From the NCBI GenBank assembly GCA_963662315.1, contig OY759353.1, positions 288,001 through 352,000 of the forward strand: DNA of 64,000 bases, in the 5' to 3' direction. Below, one piece after another: positions 1 to 64,000 of the stretch (the first letter of the stretch is position 1; each line of letters opens with the position of its first letter). Under the pieces are notes generated by a model, which saw only the letters and a program-made list of their open reading frames with translations, did not search any database and had not been told where the DNA came from. The position numbers and the translations under genes are program-made. This DNA comes from Geopsychrobacteraceae bacterium (GTDB lineage Bacteria > Desulfobacterota > Desulfuromonadia > Desulfuromonadales > Geopsychrobacteraceae).

Positions 1-1
1 T

Positions 2-592
2 TTCCTTGTTACTTTCGTAACATATCTACTCTGTGGTTCATGGCTGTGCTGGCAGGTTGTTGTTGGCGTATTTTGTTCCCATTTTTTAATTGATGGTATT
101 AAAATCGCGACAAACAATGATAGCGCTAAAGCCTTTTTGGCCGATCAGTCTGCGCATTTTTTTATTCTTCTGTTGATCGCGTTCTATTGGGTTCCACCAA
201 CGATACAGCCTTTCTGGTTAACTGTATTTCCGTTTTACAGCAAATGTCTATTACTGCTCAGTGGTGCTTTTCTGGTGATTCAAGTAGGGGGCTACTGGGT
301 CGGGAAAGCTGTTTCCGGGTTTCAGGGTGCCCTTGGCGCTCCGACTGGATTGCCAAATGCCGGACGTTTAATCGGGCAGCTTGAACGGGGTTTGATCTTC
401 TTGTTAGTTCTTGTCGGACAGCCCCAGGGGGTGGGTTTTTTGGTAACTGCTAAATCAATTTTACGGTTCGGTGAAATTAAAGATTCGGGGCAGCAGAAGG
501 AAGCTGAATATATCATCATCGGGACCTTGATGAGTTTTGGCTGGGCGCTTGCTGTCTCTTATGGTGTCAAGTGTCTTTGGGGGCTGATTTGA
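2..592 (+). CDS. DUF3307-like membrane protein, 5'-truncated by window edge
   Basis: Frame is open from position 2. Motifs HFLIDGIK...FLADQSAH and NAGRLIGQLER...AKSILRF...AEYIIIGTLMS are typical of this family. Confidence 0.75.
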   Translation, partial: FLVTFVTYLLCGSWLCWQVVVGVFCSHFLIDGIKIATNNDSAKAFLADQSAHFFILLLIAFYWVPPTIQPFWLTVFPFYSKCLLLLSGAFLVIQVGGYWVGKAVSGFQGALGAPTGLPNAGRLIGQLERGLIFLLVLVGQPQGVGFLVTAKSILRFGEIKDSGQQKEAEYIIIGTLMSFGWALAVSYGVKCLWGLI

Positions 593-798
593 TTTATTCC
601 AATCGCTAAGACCGACGGGTCCCGGCCCGCCAGCCTGTCGCAAATTGGAATCTAATTTTTTTATTAAAACTCTTGAATTCATGAAATATGAAGGATATTT
701 TTACATATTGATTTTTATATGACATAAATCTGGAGGGGAAATATGTTCTGTATCAAGCATCACTTCAGATCTTCCCATCCTCAAACATCCGGGCCGTT

Positions 799-1374
799 AT
801 GAACTATTACGATCAAAACGGCCAAGCATTCTTTGATAGTACTTTCCAGGTTGATATGGAAAGTATCTACGCACCATTTCTGAAAAAATTGCCGCCAGCG
901 GGTATCATTATTGATGCCGGTTGCGGATCAGGCCGGGACGCTTTGGCGTTCTCCCGGATAGGGTTTCAAGTTGTTGCTTTTGATGCCAGTGAGCAACTGG
1001 TGCAACTGGCAAGGGAAAACACCGGTCTTGATGTAAAGTGCTGTGCCTTTACGGATTTTAGAACTGAACCGCAAAGTATAGACGCCATCTGGGCCTGCGC
1101 ATCGCTGCTGCATGTTCCGTTTTCTCAGTTGGCAGAAACATTCAAACACCTGGCAACGTTTTTAGTGCCAGCAGGAACTTTCTACTGTTCCTTCAAATAT
1201 GGTGATGGCGAGTCTCATCAAGATAATCGTCGTTTCACCAATCTAAATGAAAAGCTCTTAGCAGATGTTATAACCGCAACCGGCCTGCAGATCGAAAAGA
1301 CCTGGCAGAGTGAAGACCTGCGACCTGAACGGGTAGGGGAGATGTGGTTGAATGCGATTTTGGTTAAATGCTGA
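799..1374 (+). CDS. Class I SAM-dependent methyltransferase
   Basis: IIDAGCGSGRD motif I; IWACASLLH motif. Confidence 0.9.
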   Translation: MNYYDQNGQAFFDSTFQVDMESIYAPFLKKLPPAGIIIDAGCGSGRDALAFSRIGFQVVAFDASEQLVQLARENTGLDVKCCAFTDFRTEPQSIDAIWACASLLHVPFSQLAETFKHLATFLVPAGTFYCSFKYGDGESHQDNRRFTNLNEKLLADVITATGLQIEKTWQSEDLRPERVGEMWLNAILVKC

Positions 1375-1384
1375 TGAGGAGCTT

Positions 1385-1519
1385 ATGGCGCTTGAGGATT
1401 ACATTGATAAGTTCAGCCATCTGAACATGAACGCCAATGGCGGGCGCAAAAGTCCCCATAAAGTGTGCATGTTGTTGGCGGTGATGGATCTGATCCTGGC
1501 GTTAAAAACTGGGGAGTGT
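1385..1519 (+). pseudogene. N-terminal fragment of a putative SBD/HNH-type restriction endonuclease
   Basis: GAGGAG RBS, then MALEDYIDKFSHLNMNANGGRKSPHKVCMLLAVMDLI, resembling the PHK..LLLAV.DLI start of sulfur-binding-domain HNH nucleases. Similarity ends inside the 43-bp repeat. Confidence 0.55.
1477..1519 (+). repeat. 43-bp direct repeat, copy 1 (copy 2 at 3138-3180)
   Basis: ggcggtgatggatctgatcctggcgttaaaaactggggagtgt vs ggcggtgatggatctgatccaggcgttaaaaactgggaagtgt; 41/43 identical. Confidence 0.95.
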
Positions 1520-1559
1520 CTCTCATTTTGTACCACTCTTTTAAATATTAGGGGGAAAA

Positions 1560-2567
1560 ATGCCTAGCGGGATTTCGCACATTCTTTTAAGCCGTTATCT
1601 TGATATTCCAGATGATCGGCTGTATCGGTATCAACTTAAGAAAAATGCACGTTACTTTCAGATTGGTAGCATAGCTCCTGATTTGCCGTATGCAAGTTTG
1701 GTCGATGATGATTTCCTTGATTCGGATAGTGAACTTGCCAATTTGTTCCACTATACCCATCCCAATCAAGATCCTGATTTATCGCCAAATCGTTTGCCTT
1801 TGCTGGGGTTAAATCAAGTACAGAAACGGTTGTTGGCAGGTGAGAACAAAAGAGAATGCGACGCTTTTTTTTGGTTTATGGTTGGTTATGCCTCTCATCT
1901 TATTGCTGATGGTGTTTGTCATCCCTTTGTTATGGATAAGGTAGGTCGTTATGAAGGGGATAATAAAGCAGAGCATCGAGCTTTAGAAATGGGGATTGAT
2001 GTTCTTCTTTTTAAATTTTTTACTGAGCTCAGTGGGCATGAAATAGAGGCGAGTTATGCCAGAGAGGATAGTTATATAAAGGGCTTTAACCAGTTAACAT
2101 ATTCTGGATCTGTATGTACATATTTCTCTGATCTGATCCATACGATATATGGGATTGATGTTGCTCCAAATGAAGTTTCTGGGTGGGTTGAAGGTATGGG
2201 ACGGCTTTTTTGTTTATCAACCGGGAAATGGCCAGCATGGCTTCGTAATCTTGATGAAACCCGTCCATATGTGTTTCGGCAAATAAAGGACCTTGACGGA
2301 ATAAAGGATGACTACCTTGTCTTAGAATCGCCAAAATTTTGGGATGCTAATTTCCTTGGGAAAAATAGGGTTCACTTTTTTGAAGATTGCCTTCCTCGAT
2401 TTGATAAATTGATGCTCGCTTTCATAGATAAGGCTTGGGCATTTGTTTACGAACAAGGTCCTGCACTAACTGAAGCCGATTTGCCCGCATATAGCCTGGA
2501 TACAGGACGTGTTGTCGCCGACTATGACAATATCGAGCTTACCCCTGCTCAGTGGGAGGTCGCATGA
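1560..2567 (+). CDS. Zinc-dependent phospholipase C-like family protein
   Basis: MPSGISH N-terminus, GSIAPD, HY, GYASHLIADGVCHPFV and HRALE metal-ligand motifs. Confidence 0.8.
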   Translation: MPSGISHILLSRYLDIPDDRLYRYQLKKNARYFQIGSIAPDLPYASLVDDDFLDSDSELANLFHYTHPNQDPDLSPNRLPLLGLNQVQKRLLAGENKRECDAFFWFMVGYASHLIADGVCHPFVMDKVGRYEGDNKAEHRALEMGIDVLLFKFFTELSGHEIEASYAREDSYIKGFNQLTYSGSVCTYFSDLIHTIYGIDVAPNEVSGWVEGMGRLFCLSTGKWPAWLRNLDETRPYVFRQIKDLDGIKDDYLVLESPKFWDANFLGKNRVHFFEDCLPRFDKLMLAFIDKAWAFVYEQGPALTEADLPAYSLDTGRVVADYDNIELTPAQWEVA

Positions 2568-3010
2568 AACCTTTTGGCAAGCTAATTATTCTGAGTTTTC
2601 TCCTGCTTTGCACCTCCTGCGCGTACTTCACAGGTGGGGTTGATGATGTCGAGAGAGATGAATTTTTCAATAAACTTCCCATGATCAACGAAGAAATATT
2701 GGGGAACTTAAAATACGATGACCCGACTCTCAATTTGCAATCACTTGGGATAAATAGTTATGCCGAGCTTTTTTCGCAGCTTGATATGACGGATGATTAT
2801 CAGCGAGTTATAACTTATATCGATAAAAGTGCTGCTGAGAAAAAACTCCTTATTTTGAAAGACACTTTTGTCGTTTGTCTTCGTTCGGAGAAAAAACAGT
2901 ATCTGCTTTGTGACGATGCCGAGAGCACAGGGGCTGATAAGGTCTTGGTCGATCGAGAGTTGCCACTGTTGCAAGATGCTTTTGACAGTTTTTCCAAGTC
3001 CTTTGAGTAA
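2564..3010 (+). CDS. Predicted lipoprotein, translationally coupled to the PLC-like gene
   Basis: ATGA overlap with upstream stop; MKPFGKLIILSFLLLCTSC signal peptide with lipobox-like Cys. Confidence 0.7.
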   Translation: MKPFGKLIILSFLLLCTSCAYFTGGVDDVERDEFFNKLPMINEEILGNLKYDDPTLNLQSLGINSYAELFSQLDMTDDYQRVITYIDKSAAEKKLLILKDTFVVCLRSEKKQYLLCDDAESTGADKVLVDRELPLLQDAFDSFSKSFE

Positions 3011-3137
3011 ATATATATGCTGAGCTAGTTGACTTTGGAATCAATTGATACCGTACTTGTTTTGTGGCTTGGCCATATCCAGAAGCAAAATCGAATATGA
3101 AACGACCAAGTCATAAAGAATTGTCAGGCAAGCTTCA

Positions 3138-3180
3138 GGCGGTGATGGATCTGATCCAGGCGTTAAAAACTGGGAAGTGT
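3138..3180 (+). repeat. 43-bp direct repeat, copy 2; its end is the left half of the IS110 target site
   Basis: 41/43 identity to 1477-1519; ends in the GT core at 3179-3180, adjacent to the IS. Confidence 0.95.
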
Positions 3181-3289
3181 TTGAATGCATAAGTAACGAA
3201 AGAGGAAGCCTCCAGATGGCGGACAGTTCATAATATGAACAGGCGGGGTCGAATTCATCGCCCCGAGTCAGACCCAAAAGGAGGCTTCC

Positions 3290-4318
3290 ATGGAAAGTAT
3301 TCACTACATTGGCCTGGACGTCCACAAGAAAACCATCGCCTATTGCATCAAGAACATGAGCGGCAAAATGATTGATCAAGGGATCGTTGGAACTGAGCGC
3401 AGGGCTCTTCGGACGTGGCTATCGGCCTTGCCTGGCCCCTGGATGGGGGCTATGGAAGCGACACTGTTCACTGGCTGGATTTACGATTTTCTCAAACCAC
3501 ACGCGATTGAGCTGAAGGTTGCTCATCCGGAAATGCTCAAGGCGATTACTGCGGCAAAGAAGAAAAATGACCGGGCAGATGCTGAAAAGCTGGCGGATCT
3601 TCTACGAGTCAATCTTCTGCCCGAATGCACCATGATGTCCGAAGAGCTCCGGGAATTACGGCGTATTCTTCGTTATCGGAATATGGTGGTCCGCACGGCA
3701 GTGCAAATGAAAAATAAAATGGCCGGATTAATGATGGAAGTCGGCGCGACCTACGACAAAAAACGGTTGTATGGGAGCAAATACTTCAATCAACTGATGG
3801 AGCGGGTAGGCGATGTGCCCGATTCGGTCAAAGAGCTGTTACAACTGAGCCGCAGTAATCTAGAGCTGTTTACCGCCATCCAGAAGAAATTGGTTCGGAC
3901 TCTCCGGGAAAATGAACTGATTCGGCAGAGAGTTGAGCTTTTGATGAGCATTGCCGGGGTTGGAGAAATTATGGCTTTGACCTGGGTGTTGGAGATCGGT
4001 GATCCAACCCGCTTTCCCTCCAGTCGGGAAGCCATCAGCTATTGCGGACTCTGCAGTGCACAACGGGAATCGGCCGGGAAAGATCAACGAGGGCCACTCT
4101 CCAAAAAACGCAACAAGCACCTGCAGACCATGCTCATTGAAGCCGCTAAGCTAGCCCCACGATGGAATATTCAACTGGCGGAATTGCATGAAAAAGAGTT
4201 GACCAAAGGCAATCGCAACCGAGCCACTTTAGCTGTTGCACGCAAGCTGGTTGAATATCTGTTGGCCGTTGATCGACGTGGTACAGCTTTTGAGGAGAGA
4301 CAATCTCAGGTCGCCTGA
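3290..4318 (+). CDS. IS110-family recombinase/transposase
   Basis: YIGLDVHKK, MEAT and KKNDRADA (DEDD RuvC-like domain); C-terminal IAGVG...YCGLCSAQRESAGK...LSKKRNKHLQTMLIEAA with the catalytic Ser region. Confidence 0.95.
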   Translation: MESIHYIGLDVHKKTIAYCIKNMSGKMIDQGIVGTERRALRTWLSALPGPWMGAMEATLFTGWIYDFLKPHAIELKVAHPEMLKAITAAKKKNDRADAEKLADLLRVNLLPECTMMSEELRELRRILRYRNMVVRTAVQMKNKMAGLMMEVGATYDKKRLYGSKYFNQLMERVGDVPDSVKELLQLSRSNLELFTAIQKKLVRTLRENELIRQRVELLMSIAGVGEIMALTWVLEIGDPTRFPSSREAISYCGLCSAQRESAGKDQRGPLSKKRNKHLQTMLIEAAKLAPRWNIQLAELHEKELTKGNRNRATLAVARKLVEYLLAVDRRGTAFEERQSQVA

Positions 4319-4354
4319 GTTGGAGAAAAACAGATACTCTTTACATCAAACGAT

Positions 4355-4512
4355 CTTCCCGCCGGGCCTTGCGGACTAGGGACTACGTGAGCTTCGCTGC
4401 ACGACATTGGGAGTGTTTCAAGGCTGGCGGGTTGGCCCAAACTCAATCTTCTGTGAAGGGATGATATCCCGGAGACAGCACATGGATGTCTGGTCGCTGA
4501 TTTAGCGGACCA
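4355..4512 (+). ncRNA. Predicted bridge/seek RNA of the IS110 element
   Basis: Two stem-closed internal loops carry segments matching the target flanks (4375-4383, 4409-4416) and the donor junction (4438-4442, 4481-4489). Boundaries approximate. Confidence 0.85.
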
Positions 4513-4649
4513 AAAGAATAGATTAAAAAGATCGAAGGATGCAAAGGACAAGGAAAAACAGAGTCGCCACCGGGAGTAGGCCCGCGAGGTAAAGGGAAAC
4601 CTCCGCTTTCCCCTTGACTTTACTTATCATGGATGTCCCTAGTTTTCCC

Positions 4650-4826
4650 AAATATGGTGATGACCAGGTCGAACGTAATGATCGTCATTTTACCAACCTA
4701 AATGAAAAGCTCTTAGCAGATGTTATAACCGCAACTGGGCTGCAGATCGATACGACCTGGCAGAGCGAAGACCTGCGCCCGGATCGGGTAGGGGAGATGT
4801 GGTTGACTGCGATTTTGGTGAAATAA
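4650..4826 (+). pseudogene. Diverged duplicate of the 3' end of the methyltransferase gene (1195-1374)
   Basis: KYGDDQVERNDRHFTNLNEKLLADVITATGLQIDTTWQSEDLRPDRVGEMWLTAILVK vs KYGDGESHQDNRRFTNLNEKLLADVITATGLQIEKTWQSEDLRPERVGEMWLNAILVK. Confidence 0.9.
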
Positions 4827-4895
4827 TCTTACAGCAAATGCTATAAAAGCCCTTTTGATTGCCTGCTAGATTTAAGGGAAGAGTCTGTTAGTAAA

Positions 4896-6455
4896 ATGAG
4901 AATACCTATTATTGATTTGTTTGCAGGGCCGGGAGGATTAGGTGAGGGATTCAGCCAAGTTGGTTGGCGTGAGGGAAATCCGTTTTTTAGGATTGGGCTT
5001 TCTGTTGAAAAAGAAGTTTTTGCACACAGGACTTTAAGGTTGCGGAGCTTTATCCGTCAATTTCCTTATAACGAAATTCCGGAAGAATATTTTCAATTTC
5101 TGAGAGAAGGTAAACAGCCCGAAGAATTGTTTTTAATAGATAAATATAAGGAGCAGGCCGATTCTGCAGAAAATGAAGCTTGGCACGAGACTTTACGAGA
5201 TGATGCTGATTTTAATAAAAAACTGGACGAGCGTATTAGTCTTGCTCTTGATGGAAATAAGAATTGGGTATTGATTGGAGGCCCTCCTTGCCAAGCATAC
5301 TCACTGGCTGGACGGTCACGCAATAAGGGAAAGAAAGATTATATTCCTGAAAAAGATCATCGTCATTTTCTCTATCAGGAATATTTACGAATTATTGGTG
5401 AGCACAAGCCGGCAGTGTTTGTCATGGAAAATGTTAAAGGGATTCTTACCTCTAAGGTAGGCGGGAGCCCTATTTTTAAACAGATCCTTAATGATCTAAG
5501 AAGTCCAATGAACGGTAATGGCTGTAAGTATAGAATATTTTCATTGGTTGCTCCTGCCGAAGAAGTCAATGAAAACGGTGATCCTCTTTTTGATGATCGT
5601 GACTTTATTATCAGGGCTGAAGAGTATGGAATTCCGCAGGCGAGGCATAGAGTTATTTTACTTGGCGTAAGAGAAGATATTGTTGAAAAAGGGATTATTC
5701 CAGAAATTTTACAAAAAAGAAAACAGGTAAGTCTTTATAAAATTCTTACTCTTCCTCCCTTAAGAAGTGGTATTTCCAGGGGGAACTTTACCGGGGAAGA
5801 ATGGTTAAGGGCAGTAAAAAGTTTTCGAATTAAAGAACTGAGAAACGAGATCGTAAAGATCTCTGACCACAGAACAATGGATCGGCTTTGGGACGCTTTG
5901 AAGGAACTCAGCATTCCTGCAAGTGATATGGGGGGGAACTTCGTGACGAAATCGCCGACTCGGATTGCAGACATATTTTTGGAAGGTTGGTATGAAGATT
6001 CTAGAATTGGCGGTGTTTATAATCATTTAGCACGGACGCACATGGTCTCCGATCTTCATAGATATATATATGCAGCCAGTTTTGCCAAATCCAGAGGGAT
6101 ATCTCCACGGATGGCTGAATTTCCGGAGGATCTTAAGCCGGATCACAAAAATAGGGACACTGGTGATTTTAATGACCGCTTCAGGGTTCAGGTGACAGGG
6201 AAGCCTGCAACCACAGTAACCTGTCATATTTCAAAAGACGGTCATTATTTTATTCACCCCGATCCATCTCAATGCAGGAGTTTGACTGTCAGGGAGGCTG
6301 CTCGTATTCAGACTTTCCCGGATAACTATTTTTTCTGTGGAAACAAGACAGAACAATACATACAGGTTGGAAATGCTGTTCCGCCACTTCTGGCCAATAA
6401 AATTGCGCTGATTGTTAAAAAAGTGCTTGTTGAGGCGTTTGGTAACAATGGCTGA
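4896..6455 (+). CDS. dcm: DNA (cytosine-5) methyltransferase
   Basis: IDLFAGPGG, GGPPCQ, MENVKG, PQARHRV, RSLTVREAARIQTFPD, QVGNAVPP. Confidence 0.95.
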   Translation: MRIPIIDLFAGPGGLGEGFSQVGWREGNPFFRIGLSVEKEVFAHRTLRLRSFIRQFPYNEIPEEYFQFLREGKQPEELFLIDKYKEQADSAENEAWHETLRDDADFNKKLDERISLALDGNKNWVLIGGPPCQAYSLAGRSRNKGKKDYIPEKDHRHFLYQEYLRIIGEHKPAVFVMENVKGILTSKVGGSPIFKQILNDLRSPMNGNGCKYRIFSLVAPAEEVNENGDPLFDDRDFIIRAEEYGIPQARHRVILLGVREDIVEKGIIPEILQKRKQVSLYKILTLPPLRSGISRGNFTGEEWLRAVKSFRIKELRNEIVKISDHRTMDRLWDALKELSIPASDMGGNFVTKSPTRIADIFLEGWYEDSRIGGVYNHLARTHMVSDLHRYIYAASFAKSRGISPRMAEFPEDLKPDHKNRDTGDFNDRFRVQVTGKPATTVTCHISKDGHYFIHPDPSQCRSLTVREAARIQTFPDNYFFCGNKTEQYIQVGNAVPPLLANKIALIVKKVLVEAFGNNG

Positions 6456-6858
6456 CAGGATAACCAAAGAACGACGCAGCTGGAATATGTCCAGAATTCG
6501 TTCCAAGGATACCACTCCTGAAATGCGTGTGAGATCTTTTCTTCATCGTAAAGGTTACCGCTTCAGACTTCATGATAAAAAACTCCCAGGCAGTCCCGAT
6601 ATTGTTCTCAAAAAATATCGGACTGCCATTTTTGTTCATGGGTGCTACTGGCATAGACATACAGGTTGTAAAAACGCTTACTCTCCCAAGAGTCGTGTTG
6701 AATTCTGGGAGGAAAAATTCAGGCAGAATGTTGAAAGAGATCAAACGAAAGAAAGGCTGCTTTATGATGCGGGATGGAATGTTCTGACTGTATGGGAGTG
6801 TGAAACGAAATCACCTGAGCAGATTGAGCATGCTTTACGTGTATTTCTTAGAAAATGA
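6448..6858 (+). CDS. vsr: Very short patch repair endonuclease
   Basis: MADRITKERRSWNMSRIRSKDTTPE, LPGSPDIV, FVHGCYWHRH, VWECE. Confidence 0.95.
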   Translation: MADRITKERRSWNMSRIRSKDTTPEMRVRSFLHRKGYRFRLHDKKLPGSPDIVLKKYRTAIFVHGCYWHRHTGCKNAYSPKSRVEFWEEKFRQNVERDQTKERLLYDAGWNVLTVWECETKSPEQIEHALRVFLRK

Positions 6859-8349
6859 ATGGAGCTTTTAATGCGGGAAGTGCCACTACCACCACGAGCA
6901 GCTGCATTATCCGAGTCGATGAGGGACTTGGGATACTCTCTTGATGCTGCCGTTGCTGATCTGATAGATAACAGCATCACTGCGGGAGCATCTCGGGTTG
7001 ATATCTATTCTGATGTTCTCAGTTCAGGTGCTTGCCTGGCAATTGTTGATGATGGATCAGGCATGAGTGATGAGGAACTACAGGTAGCCATGCGCCATGG
7101 TTCCAGAAGTCCGCGTGAAAAAAGGTCGAAAGATGACCTCGGACGGTTTGGTCTTGGATTGAAGACCGCTTCTTTTTCGCAATGCAGCAAGCTAACTGTG
7201 GTCAGTTGTAAGAATGGCAAGAGGTCCGCTGCTTTATGGGACCTAGCTCTGGTTACTGAACGCGATGACTGGATTATCTGTGTGCTGGATGATGGTGAAA
7301 TTTTAAACCTTCCATATATAGACAAACTTGTAGGCGATGGGACACTAGTACTCTGGCAGGATCTGGATCGATTGTGTGAAGGCGATAATGAGGTTGTTAA
7401 CGAGAAGCTGGTAAATGAAAAAGTCAGGGAAGTAGCGAAACATCTTTCACTTGTATTTCACCGGTACCTATCTGGTGAAATCAAAGGAAAAAAACTTAAG
7501 ATATTTATAAATTATCACATGCTGGAGGCTTTTGATCCGTTCTGTATTTCTAATAAAGCAACGGACTCTCTTCGACAGGAAGTCATCCGAATTGATGGAG
7601 AGAAAGTTGTCATCCAACCATTCATACTGCCGCATCACAGCAAATTATCTGAGAAAGAAAAGGACTTCTATAACAGCAGAAGTGATTTTCTTAATAATCA
7701 GGGCGTCTATGTGTACAGGAATGGCAGGTTGATGGCTTGGGGTGACTGGTTCCGTCTGATTCCCAAAGGTGAGGCAACCAAGCTTGCTAGGGTAAAGATA
7801 GATTTTCCAAATACTATGGATGAGCATTGGACAATTGATATCAAAAAATCCAGAGCATACCCTCCTCATCAGGTAAGAGAACAGATTCGTAAGATAATTG
7901 GCAATATCGCAGAGGGCAGCACACGTGTAATCAAAGGGAAGGGGAAAAGGCTGTACGACAGAAATCCGAAGCCGATCTGGGTTAGAACTGCAGGGCAGGG
8001 AGTAATCGAATATTCTCTTGATCGTGCACATCCTGTGATCAGTTCCGTACAGGAGTCACTTGAGGATTATGAACGCAGGAAAGTAGAAGAGGTCCTTTCT
8101 ATTGTCGAAGATTCGCTTCCTATTGAGTCTATTTATGCTGACTACACAGTCAGCCCTCGGGATTTTGAAAAAACAACCGATGTTGAAATAGATGAGATTA
8201 TTAGAAGGCTGGAAGATGTCTGGAGTATTCTGTCTGTCACTCAGGGCATTTCAGAAAAATCTTTCAGGGACGTTGTCAGTTCGGTAAAGCCGTTTTCTGA
8301 TTATCCGGAAATTATTAATGAGTTTGTTGGGGGGAAATATAATGCTTAA
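6859..8349 (+). CDS. GHKL/MORC-type (MutL-like) ATPase of a restriction-like operon
   Basis: GYSLDAAVADLIDNSITA, DDGSGM, DLGRFGLGLKTASFSQ, QGVYVYRNGRL, WTIDIKKS. Confidence 0.9.
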   Translation: MELLMREVPLPPRAAALSESMRDLGYSLDAAVADLIDNSITAGASRVDIYSDVLSSGACLAIVDDGSGMSDEELQVAMRHGSRSPREKRSKDDLGRFGLGLKTASFSQCSKLTVVSCKNGKRSAALWDLALVTERDDWIICVLDDGEILNLPYIDKLVGDGTLVLWQDLDRLCEGDNEVVNEKLVNEKVREVAKHLSLVFHRYLSGEIKGKKLKIFINYHMLEAFDPFCISNKATDSLRQEVIRIDGEKVVIQPFILPHHSKLSEKEKDFYNSRSDFLNNQGVYVYRNGRLMAWGDWFRLIPKGEATKLARVKIDFPNTMDEHWTIDIKKSRAYPPHQVREQIRKIIGNIAEGSTRVIKGKGKRLYDRNPKPIWVRTAGQGVIEYSLDRAHPVISSVQESLEDYERRKVEEVLSIVEDSLPIESIYADYTVSPRDFEKTTDVEIDEIIRRLEDVWSILSVTQGISEKSFRDVVSSVKPFSDYPEIINEFVGGKYNA

Positions 8350-63214: not shown

Positions 63215-64000
63215 CTACAGTTCGGGATACTCTGCCAGCAATTTTTTCCCGCGCCTTGCCGCAATCGTGACCCCAGAGCCAGTAATACCAAGGCGTCGTG
63301 CTATGTCAACACCTCGATGACCGCTTGCAAAGGCTTTATGGCAGATAATGCTTCTGGTGTTGGCAATCTGTTGCGAGCGACTCTGCGATGTCAGCTCTGT
63401 TATCGACAGGCCAGTTTTGGCACAAACCTGCTTAACGATCTCGTCCAAGGAGAGTTCTGCAACAGACGGTTTTTCTTCCACTTGCTGCAGGAGTTGTTCA
63501 ACAAAATCTCCGCGCCCCAAGACCCGCGCATCCCGAAAATTATCTTCCGGTTGTTCCGCCGCTGCCTGGCGTCGCTGCGAGCCGGAACCAACTAGATCGT
63601 TTCTGTGCCCCATGGCGATGCCATCTGCAACAAAAGTACAGTAACCTTGACGTGAAGTTTTCATGGTTTCACCAAACCGCGCCAGCACTTCGGTTGTCAC
63701 TTGTCCCGGCAGGGTTCGTTGACCGAGCAACACAGAGTGTCCGCACCACGGATAAAGATCCAGTTCTTCAAGGGTTGAGATGATTCCTGCACGTAGCGGA
63801 TTCAGGTGGATGTAACGCACCAGTTCCAGCAGATACTCTTCTTCGTCACAGACAATCGATTTATAACGATTCTGGAAAAGATGGCCGGAACGTTGATGCC
63901 GGTGGTTGAAGGTGACAGCGTAACCGGTCAAGAGTCGCCGCATGAATTTAGCCAGAGGAGTCGAATGTGGGCAGAATAAAAGATGGACGTGGTTGTCGAG
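63215..64000 (-). CDS. REP-associated tyrosine (HUH/Y1) transposase with C-terminal DnaA-like HTH, 5'-truncated by window edge
   Basis: Frame open to 64000: LDNHVHLL (HUH), FNHRHQRSGHLFQNRYKS, LVRYIHLNP (catalytic Tyr), YPWCGH. Confidence 0.92.
   Translation of the reverse strand, partial: LDNHVHLLFCPHSTPLAKFMRRLLTGYAVTFNHRHQRSGHLFQNRYKSIVCDEEEYLLELVRYIHLNPLRAGIISTLEELDLYPWCGHSVLLGQRTLPGQVTTEVLARFGETMKTSRQGYCTFVADGIAMGHRNDLVGSGSQRRQAAAEQPEDNFRDARVLGRGDFVEQLLQQVEEKPSVAELSLDEIVKQVCAKTGLSITELTSQSRSQQIANTRSIICHKAFASGHRGVDIARRLGITGSGVTIAARRGKKLLAEYPEL

Follow-up and report, generated by a model that had tools for sequence, protein, structure and literature searches.

An IS1111-group insertion sequence at the loop edge of a hairpin that probably bounds a RAYT-like Y1 unit in a Geopsychrobacteraceae genome

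The 64,000-nucleotide stretch analyzed here (the window; positions 288,001 to 352,000 of contig OY759353.1 from a Geopsychrobacteraceae bacterium) carries, at 3181-4636, a 1456-bp insertion sequence (IS) of the IS1111 group of the IS110 family, situated at the loop edge of a short imperfect palindrome. The element appears to be intact and recently active, guided by an RNA from its right end and programmed for the hairpin of a RAYT-like unit (RAYT, REP-associated tyrosine transposase; REP, repetitive extragenic palindrome), and the palindrome would constitute both inverted termini of this ~0.75-kb Y1 (HUH) unit, plus a few solo copies. We give this explanation as a whole a probability of about 0.87. 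The anatomy of the element, its copies, the natural empty sites and the covariation between guides and flanks are observed directly in the genomes compared. The element and its target comprise the following features.

3181..4636, + strand: IS110-family (IS1111-group) insertion sequence, 1456 bp; the boundaries shift by 3 nt through a shared TGT
3163..3180, + strand: left half of the target hairpin, TTAAAAACTGGGAAGTGT, with left arm, AGTG loop and shared TGT
4637..4646, + strand: right half of the target hairpin, CCCTAGTTTT
3290..4318, + strand: transposase/recombinase gene, 342 aa, with Pfam and NCBIfam matches; the sole long open reading frame (ORF) in 3181-4636
3185..3196, + strand: left subterminal inverted repeat ATGCATAAGTAA, of which ATAAGTAA is complementary to TTACTTAT
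4620..4630, + strand: right subterminal inverted repeat TTACTTATCAT, which pairs with 3185-3196
4339..4546, + strand: core of the predicted bridge/seek RNA, from inverted repeat I1 (4339-4357/4528-4546), the minimum free energy (MFE) structure and RNAalifold
4373..4383, + strand: putative right-target guide GGACTAGGGAC, complementary to GT+CCCTAGT(TT) of the top strand
4409..4416, + strand: putative left-target guide GGGAGTGT, in the same sense as the left target
4481..4489, + strand: candidate guide for the left donor, CATGGATGT, the same sequence as that of the IS right tip (4628-4636) and (nearly) invariant in an alignment of 48 sequences

Deletion of 3181-4636 in silico yields aaaactgggaagtgtccctagtttt, exactly the joined string that a first-pass annotation of this DNA had given as the imperfect palindrome restored by removal of the IS. 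As single-stranded DNA this IS-less site folds into a 10-bp interrupted stem with an AGTG loop at a free energy (dG) of -6.8 kcal/mol, whereas its shuffles reach -1.5 +/- 1.3 and as good a fold is found in 1 of 300. The annotation had also placed the core at the loop edge, and the shared TGT does lie at the 3' edge of the AGTG loop. The junctions in the window read ...gcgttaaaaactgggaagtgt / ttgaatgc... on the left and ...catggatgt / ccctagttttccc on the right, or, over a longer span, ...GCGTTAAAAACTGGGAAGTGT / TTGAATGCATAAG...ACTTATCATGGATGT / CCCTAGTTTTCCC. Because TGT is common to the end of the left flank and the right end of the IS, the boundaries are ambiguous by 3 nt, the alternative limits running from 3178-4633 to 3181-4636. 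The insertion is precise at this core, and TGT is all that IS and target share. The right arm CCCTAGTTTT occurs seven times on both strands of the 4.7-Mb genome, against 9.4 expected, and three of the seven adjoin an IS copy.

The genome (G000, a single 4.71-Mb contig) harbours four IS copies that are 100% identical across 1456 bp, and was compared with the congeners G001, G004, G005 and G006. In IS orientation the flanks of the four copies, c1 being the one in the window, are as follows.

c1: left AAAACTGGGAAGTGT, right CCCTAGTTTTCCC
c2: left AAATAGGGGAAGTGT, right CCCTAGTTTTTCC
c3: left as in c2, right TCCAAACAGTAA
c4: left AAATAGGGGCAGTGT, right CCCTAGTTTTCAA

Three of the four copies (c1, c2 and c4) thus lie between ...GGG[A/C]AGTGT on the left and CCCTAGTTTT on the right. 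The left flank of c3 is that of c2 because the IS was duplicated together with 360 bp of flank (1817 bp at 99.5%), and its right flank is not target-like. The 1817-bp duplicated unit, seen at L005:7044-10891 (G000:C1:4201044-4204891), consists of IS, 5'-deleted Y1 gene and 3' hairpin; with its 215-bp spacer and a right junction of c3 that reads GT/TCCAAACAG, the duplication is not a simple tandem. Copies at 88-92% identity are present in G004, G005 and G006, and the IS query found no match in the G001 genome. Six of the seven full copies in G004-G006 are preceded by ...GGG[A/C]AGTGT or GGGACTGT and followed by CCC[T/A/G][A/G][G/A]TTTT; the aberrant one, L021, lies between GAGAGTGT and CCCCTTTAAG. 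Remnants of 60-188 bp, comprising only the IS right end, occur at four loci of G004-G006 (L023, L025, L027 and L028), where they adjoin right-target-like sequence. At L025 a complete hairpin (…GGGAAGTGTTCCGGTTTT) is followed directly by IS nucleotides 1269-1456, a joint that is also found as a loose end in run X6. Such remnants recall the modular circles described for ISPpu9 in the available text of PMC12288879.

Uninterrupted sites were sought with the hairpin pattern GGGNAGYGYCCCNRRTTTT, allowing up to one mismatch and with the reversed pattern as control. There were 4 matches in G000, 14 in G004, 6 in G005, 8 in G006 and 6 in G001, against 2, 1, 1, 0 and 0 for the control, and they include the uninterrupted sites GGGAAGTGTCCCTAGTTTT and GGGCAGTGTCCCTAGTTTT. 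The script-joined flanks of c1, c2 and c4 have exact matches in G004 of 25, 28 and 27 nt, respectively, across the junction, and natural, uninterrupted Y1 3' hairpins of the same genome have the sequence of 3163..3180 as their left half. Since the joined flanks match uninterrupted congener sites exactly, the reconstruction is right and the insertion precise. The empty site reconstructed in the first-pass annotation is therefore a naturally occurring sequence, and its proposal that the element targets a repeated palindrome family holds for the flanks of other copies as well as for the uninterrupted congener sites. Unrelated flanks at other copies, which that annotation had named as grounds for abandoning the proposal, are the exception, the flanks being related in 3/4 copies in G000 and 6/7 in congeners.

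The conserved flanks might instead belong to the element itself, which would then be longer and end in the inverted repeats AAAACTAGGG...CCCTAGTTTT, as the flanks are mutually inverted repeats and accompany three of the four copies. However, the copies agree at every one of the 1456 bp but differ at 1-4 positions of the left flank, and the two halves are joined with nothing between them around Y1 genes both in G004-G006 and in G001, where hairpins are present though the IS query is unmatched. We regard the longer element as effectively refuted, and retain the shorter one with a hairpin target.

Membership of the IS110 family is apparent from the domains of the transposase, which matches DEDD_Tnp_IS110 (PF01548, E 2.2e-18, residues 7-149) and Transposase_20 (PF02371, E 8.9e-21, residues 216-298) in Pfam, and the NCBIfam model of IS110 family RNA-guided transposases (NF033542) at 186.5 bits, above the cut-off of 140 and over positions 1-342 of 343. 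The IS1111 group is characterized by a long non-coding region 3' of tnp and a short one 5' of it (described in the available portions of PMC11208160 and PMC11187229), and the element has 109 nt on the left (3181-3289) and 318 nt on the right (4319-4636). Its subterminal repeats share an 8-nt perfect core, extended to 12/11 nt with one indel as read off the sequence, and beyond them lie a 7-bp extension on the left (TGTTTGA, with TGT counted left) and a 3-bp extension on the right (GGA). This agrees with the values given for IS1111 elements in the part of PMC11187229 that deals with their ends, namely subterminal inverted repeats of ~7-17 bp and extensions of 7 bp on the left and 3 bp on the right. 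A search of a plasmid collection with the transposase found no named close relative, the best match being an unannotated protein at 65% amino acid identity.

The RNA predicted from the right end would be built of an outer stem, an internal loop for target binding and a multi-loop that contains stretches matching the donor. In order to compare guides with flanks, 80 loci encoding relatives were fetched, with titles pointing to Geopsychrobacteraceae, Desulfuromonadales and other Thermodesulfobacteriota metagenome-assembled genomes; in 52 of the 81 elements examined, a right tip was recognisable together with both anchors, while an anchor was missing from 14 and the tip motif from 15. Identity between left guide and flank at positions -4 to -8 was 0.66-0.85, compared to 0.30-0.44 after permutation, a level reached by none of 1000 permutations (41 unique pairs). 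Pairing between right guide and flank at +3 to +8 was 0.64-0.86, compared to 0.46-0.74, and was reached by 0-7 of 1000 (44 unique pairs). The pairs are related sequences, so these permutation counts overstate their independence. TGT is essentially invariant across the pairs, and the apparent pairing covers 8 nt on the left, including TGT, and ~8-10 nt on the right.

When 48 right ends were aligned, constant stems were seen to surround variable guide stretches. RNAalifold predicted 37 base pairs for these relatives, 18 of them with compensatory changes, including pairs in the stem that closes the two-guide loop and in the hairpin between the guides. The putative right guide (4373-4383), which is the complement of the top strand, precedes the left one (4409-4416), and the same order, top-strand complement first, is reported for IS1111 seekRNAs in the relevant part of PMC11187229.

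These features suggest the following mechanism. A DEDD/serine recombinase would be guided by an RNA from the 318-nt right non-coding end, in which the stretch 4373-4383 would pair, to the right of the insertion point, with GT+CCCTAGT of the top strand, and the stretch 4409-4416, having the sense of the left target ...GGGAGTGT, with the bottom strand. The target programmed in this way would be the asymmetric edge of the loop in an imperfect palindrome of ~28 nt. Crossover would occur within the TGT common to target and IS tip, and a precise insertion with no duplication beyond the core would therefore be expected. RNA-guided chemistry, a circular intermediate and expression of the RNA are expected by analogy with the published work on IS621, ISEc11 and ISPa11; the mechanism is the known one of RNA-guided IS1111-type elements, and no new one is proposed.

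As to the nature of the palindrome, all five Y1_Tnp-related genes (L122, L124, L125; four fetched G004/G001 loci) are bracketed by an inverted hairpin pair about 727 bp apart. An imperfect palindrome thus stands on both sides of the gene in inverted orientation, the arrangement by which PMC2817692, in the part available, defines REP/RAYT systems, together with a high copy number of the REPs. The Y1 protein matches the NCBIfam model of REP-associated tyrosine transposases (NF047646) with E 1.9e-21 and 76.5 bits, and the IS200 model with only 16 bits. In G000 the full-length Y1 gene (L005:14788-15606) has a hairpin near its 3' end, within the called ORF, and an inverted one 55 bp upstream, where copy c4 is inserted. 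Two 5'-deleted paralogues in this genome end in ...GKTGE with the hairpin overlapping the stop codon, and c2 and c3 are located in the upstream hairpin of a 5'-deleted paralogue. Among 15 loci of relatives, a Y1 match was found at four, the IS copy lying in the hairpin upstream of the Y1 gene at L018 and L026 and in the 3' hairpin at L010 and L011. The site in the window is a solo hairpin, of 3'-type sequence and with no Y1 gene beside it. A reading as integron attC sites, suggested by the gene fragments that adjoin hairpins, was set aside, with no integrase search made, once the hairpins were found to flank Y1 genes.

The term "REP-like" in the first-pass annotation therefore applies to the inverted flanking of a RAYT-like Y1 gene and not to a genome-wide REP family, the palindrome being low-copy (4-14 per genome). 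The G000 relatives of the hairpin are clustered at 4.20-4.27 Mb, in addition to the window. The GT(A/G)G head mentioned in a figure legend of PMC2817692 is not evident at the hairpin foot, where no systematic search for it was made. G000 contains more than 10 Y1 paralogues in all, and some decay by internal deletions at short repeats, read by eye at L005:8503-8530 and in L006 (~G000:C1:4236286-4236573); one is a 5' deletion at TATTTA, from the upstream hairpin to codon ~115, and in the other ~50 codons are gone at GCCGG. A distant Y1_Tnp paralogue with 35% amino acid identity is found at ~63740-64000 of the window (G000:C1:351740-352168) and runs off its end. A target variant with a longer loop, AAACTAG...GCGCCATTCGGGA[C/G]TG[T/C]CCCTAGTTTT, forms the left flank at L009 and is also found at G000:C1:4270050-4270104. 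In G004 it stands directly after an ORF ending ...RPGRSEPRCVKRRPKNY..., which we take to be typical of the C-termini of IS4-like transposases.

Several observations weigh against the explanation preferred here. On the side of the RNA, no convincing right-donor guide could be assigned, the candidates pairing over only 5-7 nt, and the MFE of the right end is no better than that of shuffles (z 0.14). It is covariation alone that argues for the RNA structure, because single-sequence folding gives nothing above shuffles. The pairing is imperfect at real targets, since all occupied G000 sites mismatch the left guide at -6 (GGA/C... vs. GGG...), and the c3 right flank TCCAAACAG is a poor match to the right guide. 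An Rfam scan of window positions 1-8000 at E<=1 matched no family, and the sequencing runs listed for this sequence include none of RNA. On the side of the palindrome, the Y1 protein at 76.5 bits falls just under the NF047646 cut-off of 80, and the 4-14 matches per genome in five congeners are far from the dispersed REPs that usually exceed 100 per genome. An empty allele of the window locus was found neither in 41 genomes nor with either flank in five congeners, where only the methyltransferase, HNH and phospholipase-C-like genes match, in other arrangements. Finally, neither a right end-left end circle junction nor a 3180-4637 joint was present in the contigs of four runs, although these contigs break at the repeat and so say little on either. 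A 1-nt bulge at -6 of the left target was considered as well and rejected; shifted registers fit worse than the contiguous one across the 41 pairs.

A second site with related sequence lies 1.66 kb upstream of the occupied one, at 1505-1529 (aaaactggggagtgtctctcatttt), and is unoccupied. The local features that bear on it are given below.

1477..1529, + strand: sister site, in which a decayed right arm CTCTCATTTT (7/10 identical to CCCTAGTTTT) comes after a 43-bp repeat
3138..3180, + strand: second copy of the 43-bp repeat, adjoining the IS; 95.3% identity with two differences from 1477-1519, E 1e-13
1385..1501, + strand: the 5'-terminal 39 codons of an HNH endonuclease gene, a fragment that ends exactly where the hairpin sequence TTAAAAACTGGGG... 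begins
4649..4824, + strand: 3' fragment of a second S-adenosylmethionine (SAM)-methyltransferase copy, 87% identical to 1194-1369, which begins directly after the right arm

Of the 43-bp repeat, 25 bp are the last ones of the HNH gene fragment and 18 bp are the left half of the hairpin. A full-length gene for a 374-aa HNH endonuclease with a Pfam HNH_2 match follows the methyltransferase (799-1374 in the window) in G001 and G004. To the right of the occupied site, the hairpin arm runs straight into the 3' fragment of the second methyltransferase copy. The sister site has lost its hairpin (dG -0.9; 156 of 300 shuffles fold as well). Judged from these sequences, it is a local paralogue of the occupied site with a decayed right arm and not an independent family member. 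The first-pass annotation had treated it as a related empty site with a perfect left-target match and a degenerate right half, and it is indeed unoccupied, matches the left guide at 8/8 positions and has a degenerate right half; with 43 bp shared, it does not count as an independent member of the family. The duplication of HNH fragment and hairpin probably predates the IS insertions, because the 43-bp repeat has two differences and the four IS copies have none. The HNH-derived part of the repeat (3144-3152 and 1483-1491) reads GATGGATCT, which agrees at 7/9 positions with CATGGATGT, the sequence of left-donor guide candidate and IS right tip; the resemblance may be due to chance. The ORF at 1352-1567 was considered as a decayed Y1 C-terminus and rejected; BLASTP gave only E 0.18, and the G001/G004 orthologues show the HNH 5' end.

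One possible origin of the two sites is a rearrangement or copying at the outer hairpin foot, e.g. Y1/HUH cleavage and transfer with a 25-nt 5' flank. The pair would then be two products of one event and not an old target beside one that was never used, which would bear on how the pair arose and not on the site choice of the IS. The repeat starts 25 bp upstream of the hairpin, inside what is clearly HNH gene sequence in G001 and G004, and further upstream there is no significant similarity (score 16 vs. 14.3 +/- 2.2 for shuffled sequences, equalled or exceeded by 249 of 1000). The HNH 5' end, the methyltransferase 3' end and a 5'-deleted Y1 gene all adjoin hairpins exactly at their outer edges, and the greater age of the duplication fits as well. 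However, 3 differences fall in the 10 positions of the right arm and 2 in the 43 of the left part, which is odd for a simple copy, and the mechanism and the Y1 cleavage sites are conjectural; we consider this origin unlikely.

The first-pass annotation further held that the right-guide match may decide which copies of the palindrome are occupied, so that the empty state of the sister site would come from the failure of its degenerate right half to pair. Within G000 the pattern fits this. The sister site keeps TGT and the full left match and has true right-side mismatches at +5 and +6 with a G:T wobble at +2; the three sites that retain TGT and pair over the whole right side all carry the IS and have one left mismatch each (-6). 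The five other unoccupied relatives have TGT altered to CGT (2), TGC (2) or TGA (1), so that all six, sister site included, carry a core mutation or a degenerate right side. Other genomes argue against it. In G004, where the guides are the same, at least six equal or better sites are empty, one of them perfect on both sides (CGGGAGTGTCCCTAGTTTT at 4621184), and in G006, with near-identical IS copies, four GGGCAGTGTCCCTAGTTTT sites are empty. Conversely, the site that L021 occupies has three consecutive mismatches on the right side, and that of L019 a wobble and a single mismatch. With only three independent insertions in G000, chance and a low transposition frequency would suffice. We therefore hold it rather doubtful that the right guide decides occupancy; a guide match looks necessary but far from sufficient, and no particular reason is required for the sister site to be empty.

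It could also be speculated that the IS is a specialised hyperparasite of the RAYT-like Y1 unit, co-evolving with it, and that the 43-bp repeat is a Y1-mobilised solo hairpin with 25 nt of foreign 5' flank, a combination that we find improbable. Guide variants, such as GGGAGTGT here and GGGAAGTGT in L085/L016, do track hairpin variants, and no G000 hairpin that keeps both TGT and right arm is left empty. On this reading the core or right-arm changes found in all surviving empty G000 hairpins would be escape mutations.

After the IS, the window encodes a C5 cytosine DNA methylase, a Vsr mismatch endonuclease and an HATPase_c_3 protein (4896-8349). Together with the truncated HNH gene (1385-1501) these genes resemble a restriction/defence island in decay. 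The three clustered IS copies elsewhere in G000 (L005:11131-19098, G000:C1:~4205100-4213100) lie within a polymorphic-toxin region, with ORFs that have CdiA-CT RNase A and colicin-DNase/WHH C-terminal domains, a DUF6985 protein, and ~0.7-1 kb of upstream sequence present three times at 92-96%. Defence-type genes of the ABC-three-component (ABC-3C) kind (CTD6, MC2, AAA/SMC-like ATPase) are found at L005:3202-6606, just upstream of this IS cluster.

The targeting of palindromes or transposon ends by an IS is of a well-known kind, and the finding is a modest one. It provides a clean natural example of an IS1111-type RNA-guided recombinase in Desulfuromonadales-type bacteria, in which target, guides and empty sites can be read from genomes, and the ~40 re-programmed relatives could define pairing rules for IS1111-type bridge/seek RNAs. 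It also presents one mobile element using the ends of another, the RAYT-like unit, as a landing pad, and thereby disrupting those units in G000. An IS1111-type element that targets the end of another mobile element, as here, is reportedly the subject of a study whose title concerns the Tn21-end case. The two cases differ in the host element, which in the present one is not a DDE Tn3-family transposon but a RAYT-like Y1/HUH unit that ends in hairpins.

Targeting of REP, attC and Tn21 ends by the IS110 family has already been published, according to the available text of PMC11208160 and PMC12288879. The ISPa11, ISPpu9 and ISPpu10 elements of Pseudomonas and IS621 of E. coli resemble the present IS in their fixed position and orientation within a short repeated palindrome, in sharing a di- or trinucleotide with it, in causing no target duplication and in having several identical copies per genome. 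In ISPa11, which is of the IS1111 type, the seekRNA lies 3' of tnp (PMC11187229), insertion of ISPpu9 is at a fixed REP position (PMC12288879), and 144 of 173 mapped IS621 insertions are in REPs (PMC11208160), as stated in the portions of these papers that cover the elements. Unlike the REPs of those systems, which number in the hundreds, the palindromes here count 4-14 per genome and are mostly the termini of a multi-copy RAYT-like unit, and the transposase is distant from anything named in the searched collections. Natural re-programming is described in the available sections of PMC11187229 and PMC11208160 for relatives of ISEc11 and ISXne4 (seekRNA) and of IS621 (bridge RNA), and re-programmed guides are likewise found across the ~40 relatives here; in contrast to those systems, the RNA here is predicted from sequence, with no Rfam match and with donor pairing partly assignable. 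The Y1 gene between inverted palindromes, the 3' one of which meets or overlaps the stop codon, is arranged as in RAYT/REP systems (Nunvar 2010; PMC2817692, in the part available). Unlike domesticated RAYTs with hundreds of REPs, there are several Y1 copies per genome and few palindromes, and in this the system resembles the IS-like RAYT groups, as far as these are described in the available text of Bertels 2017 (PMC5581495).

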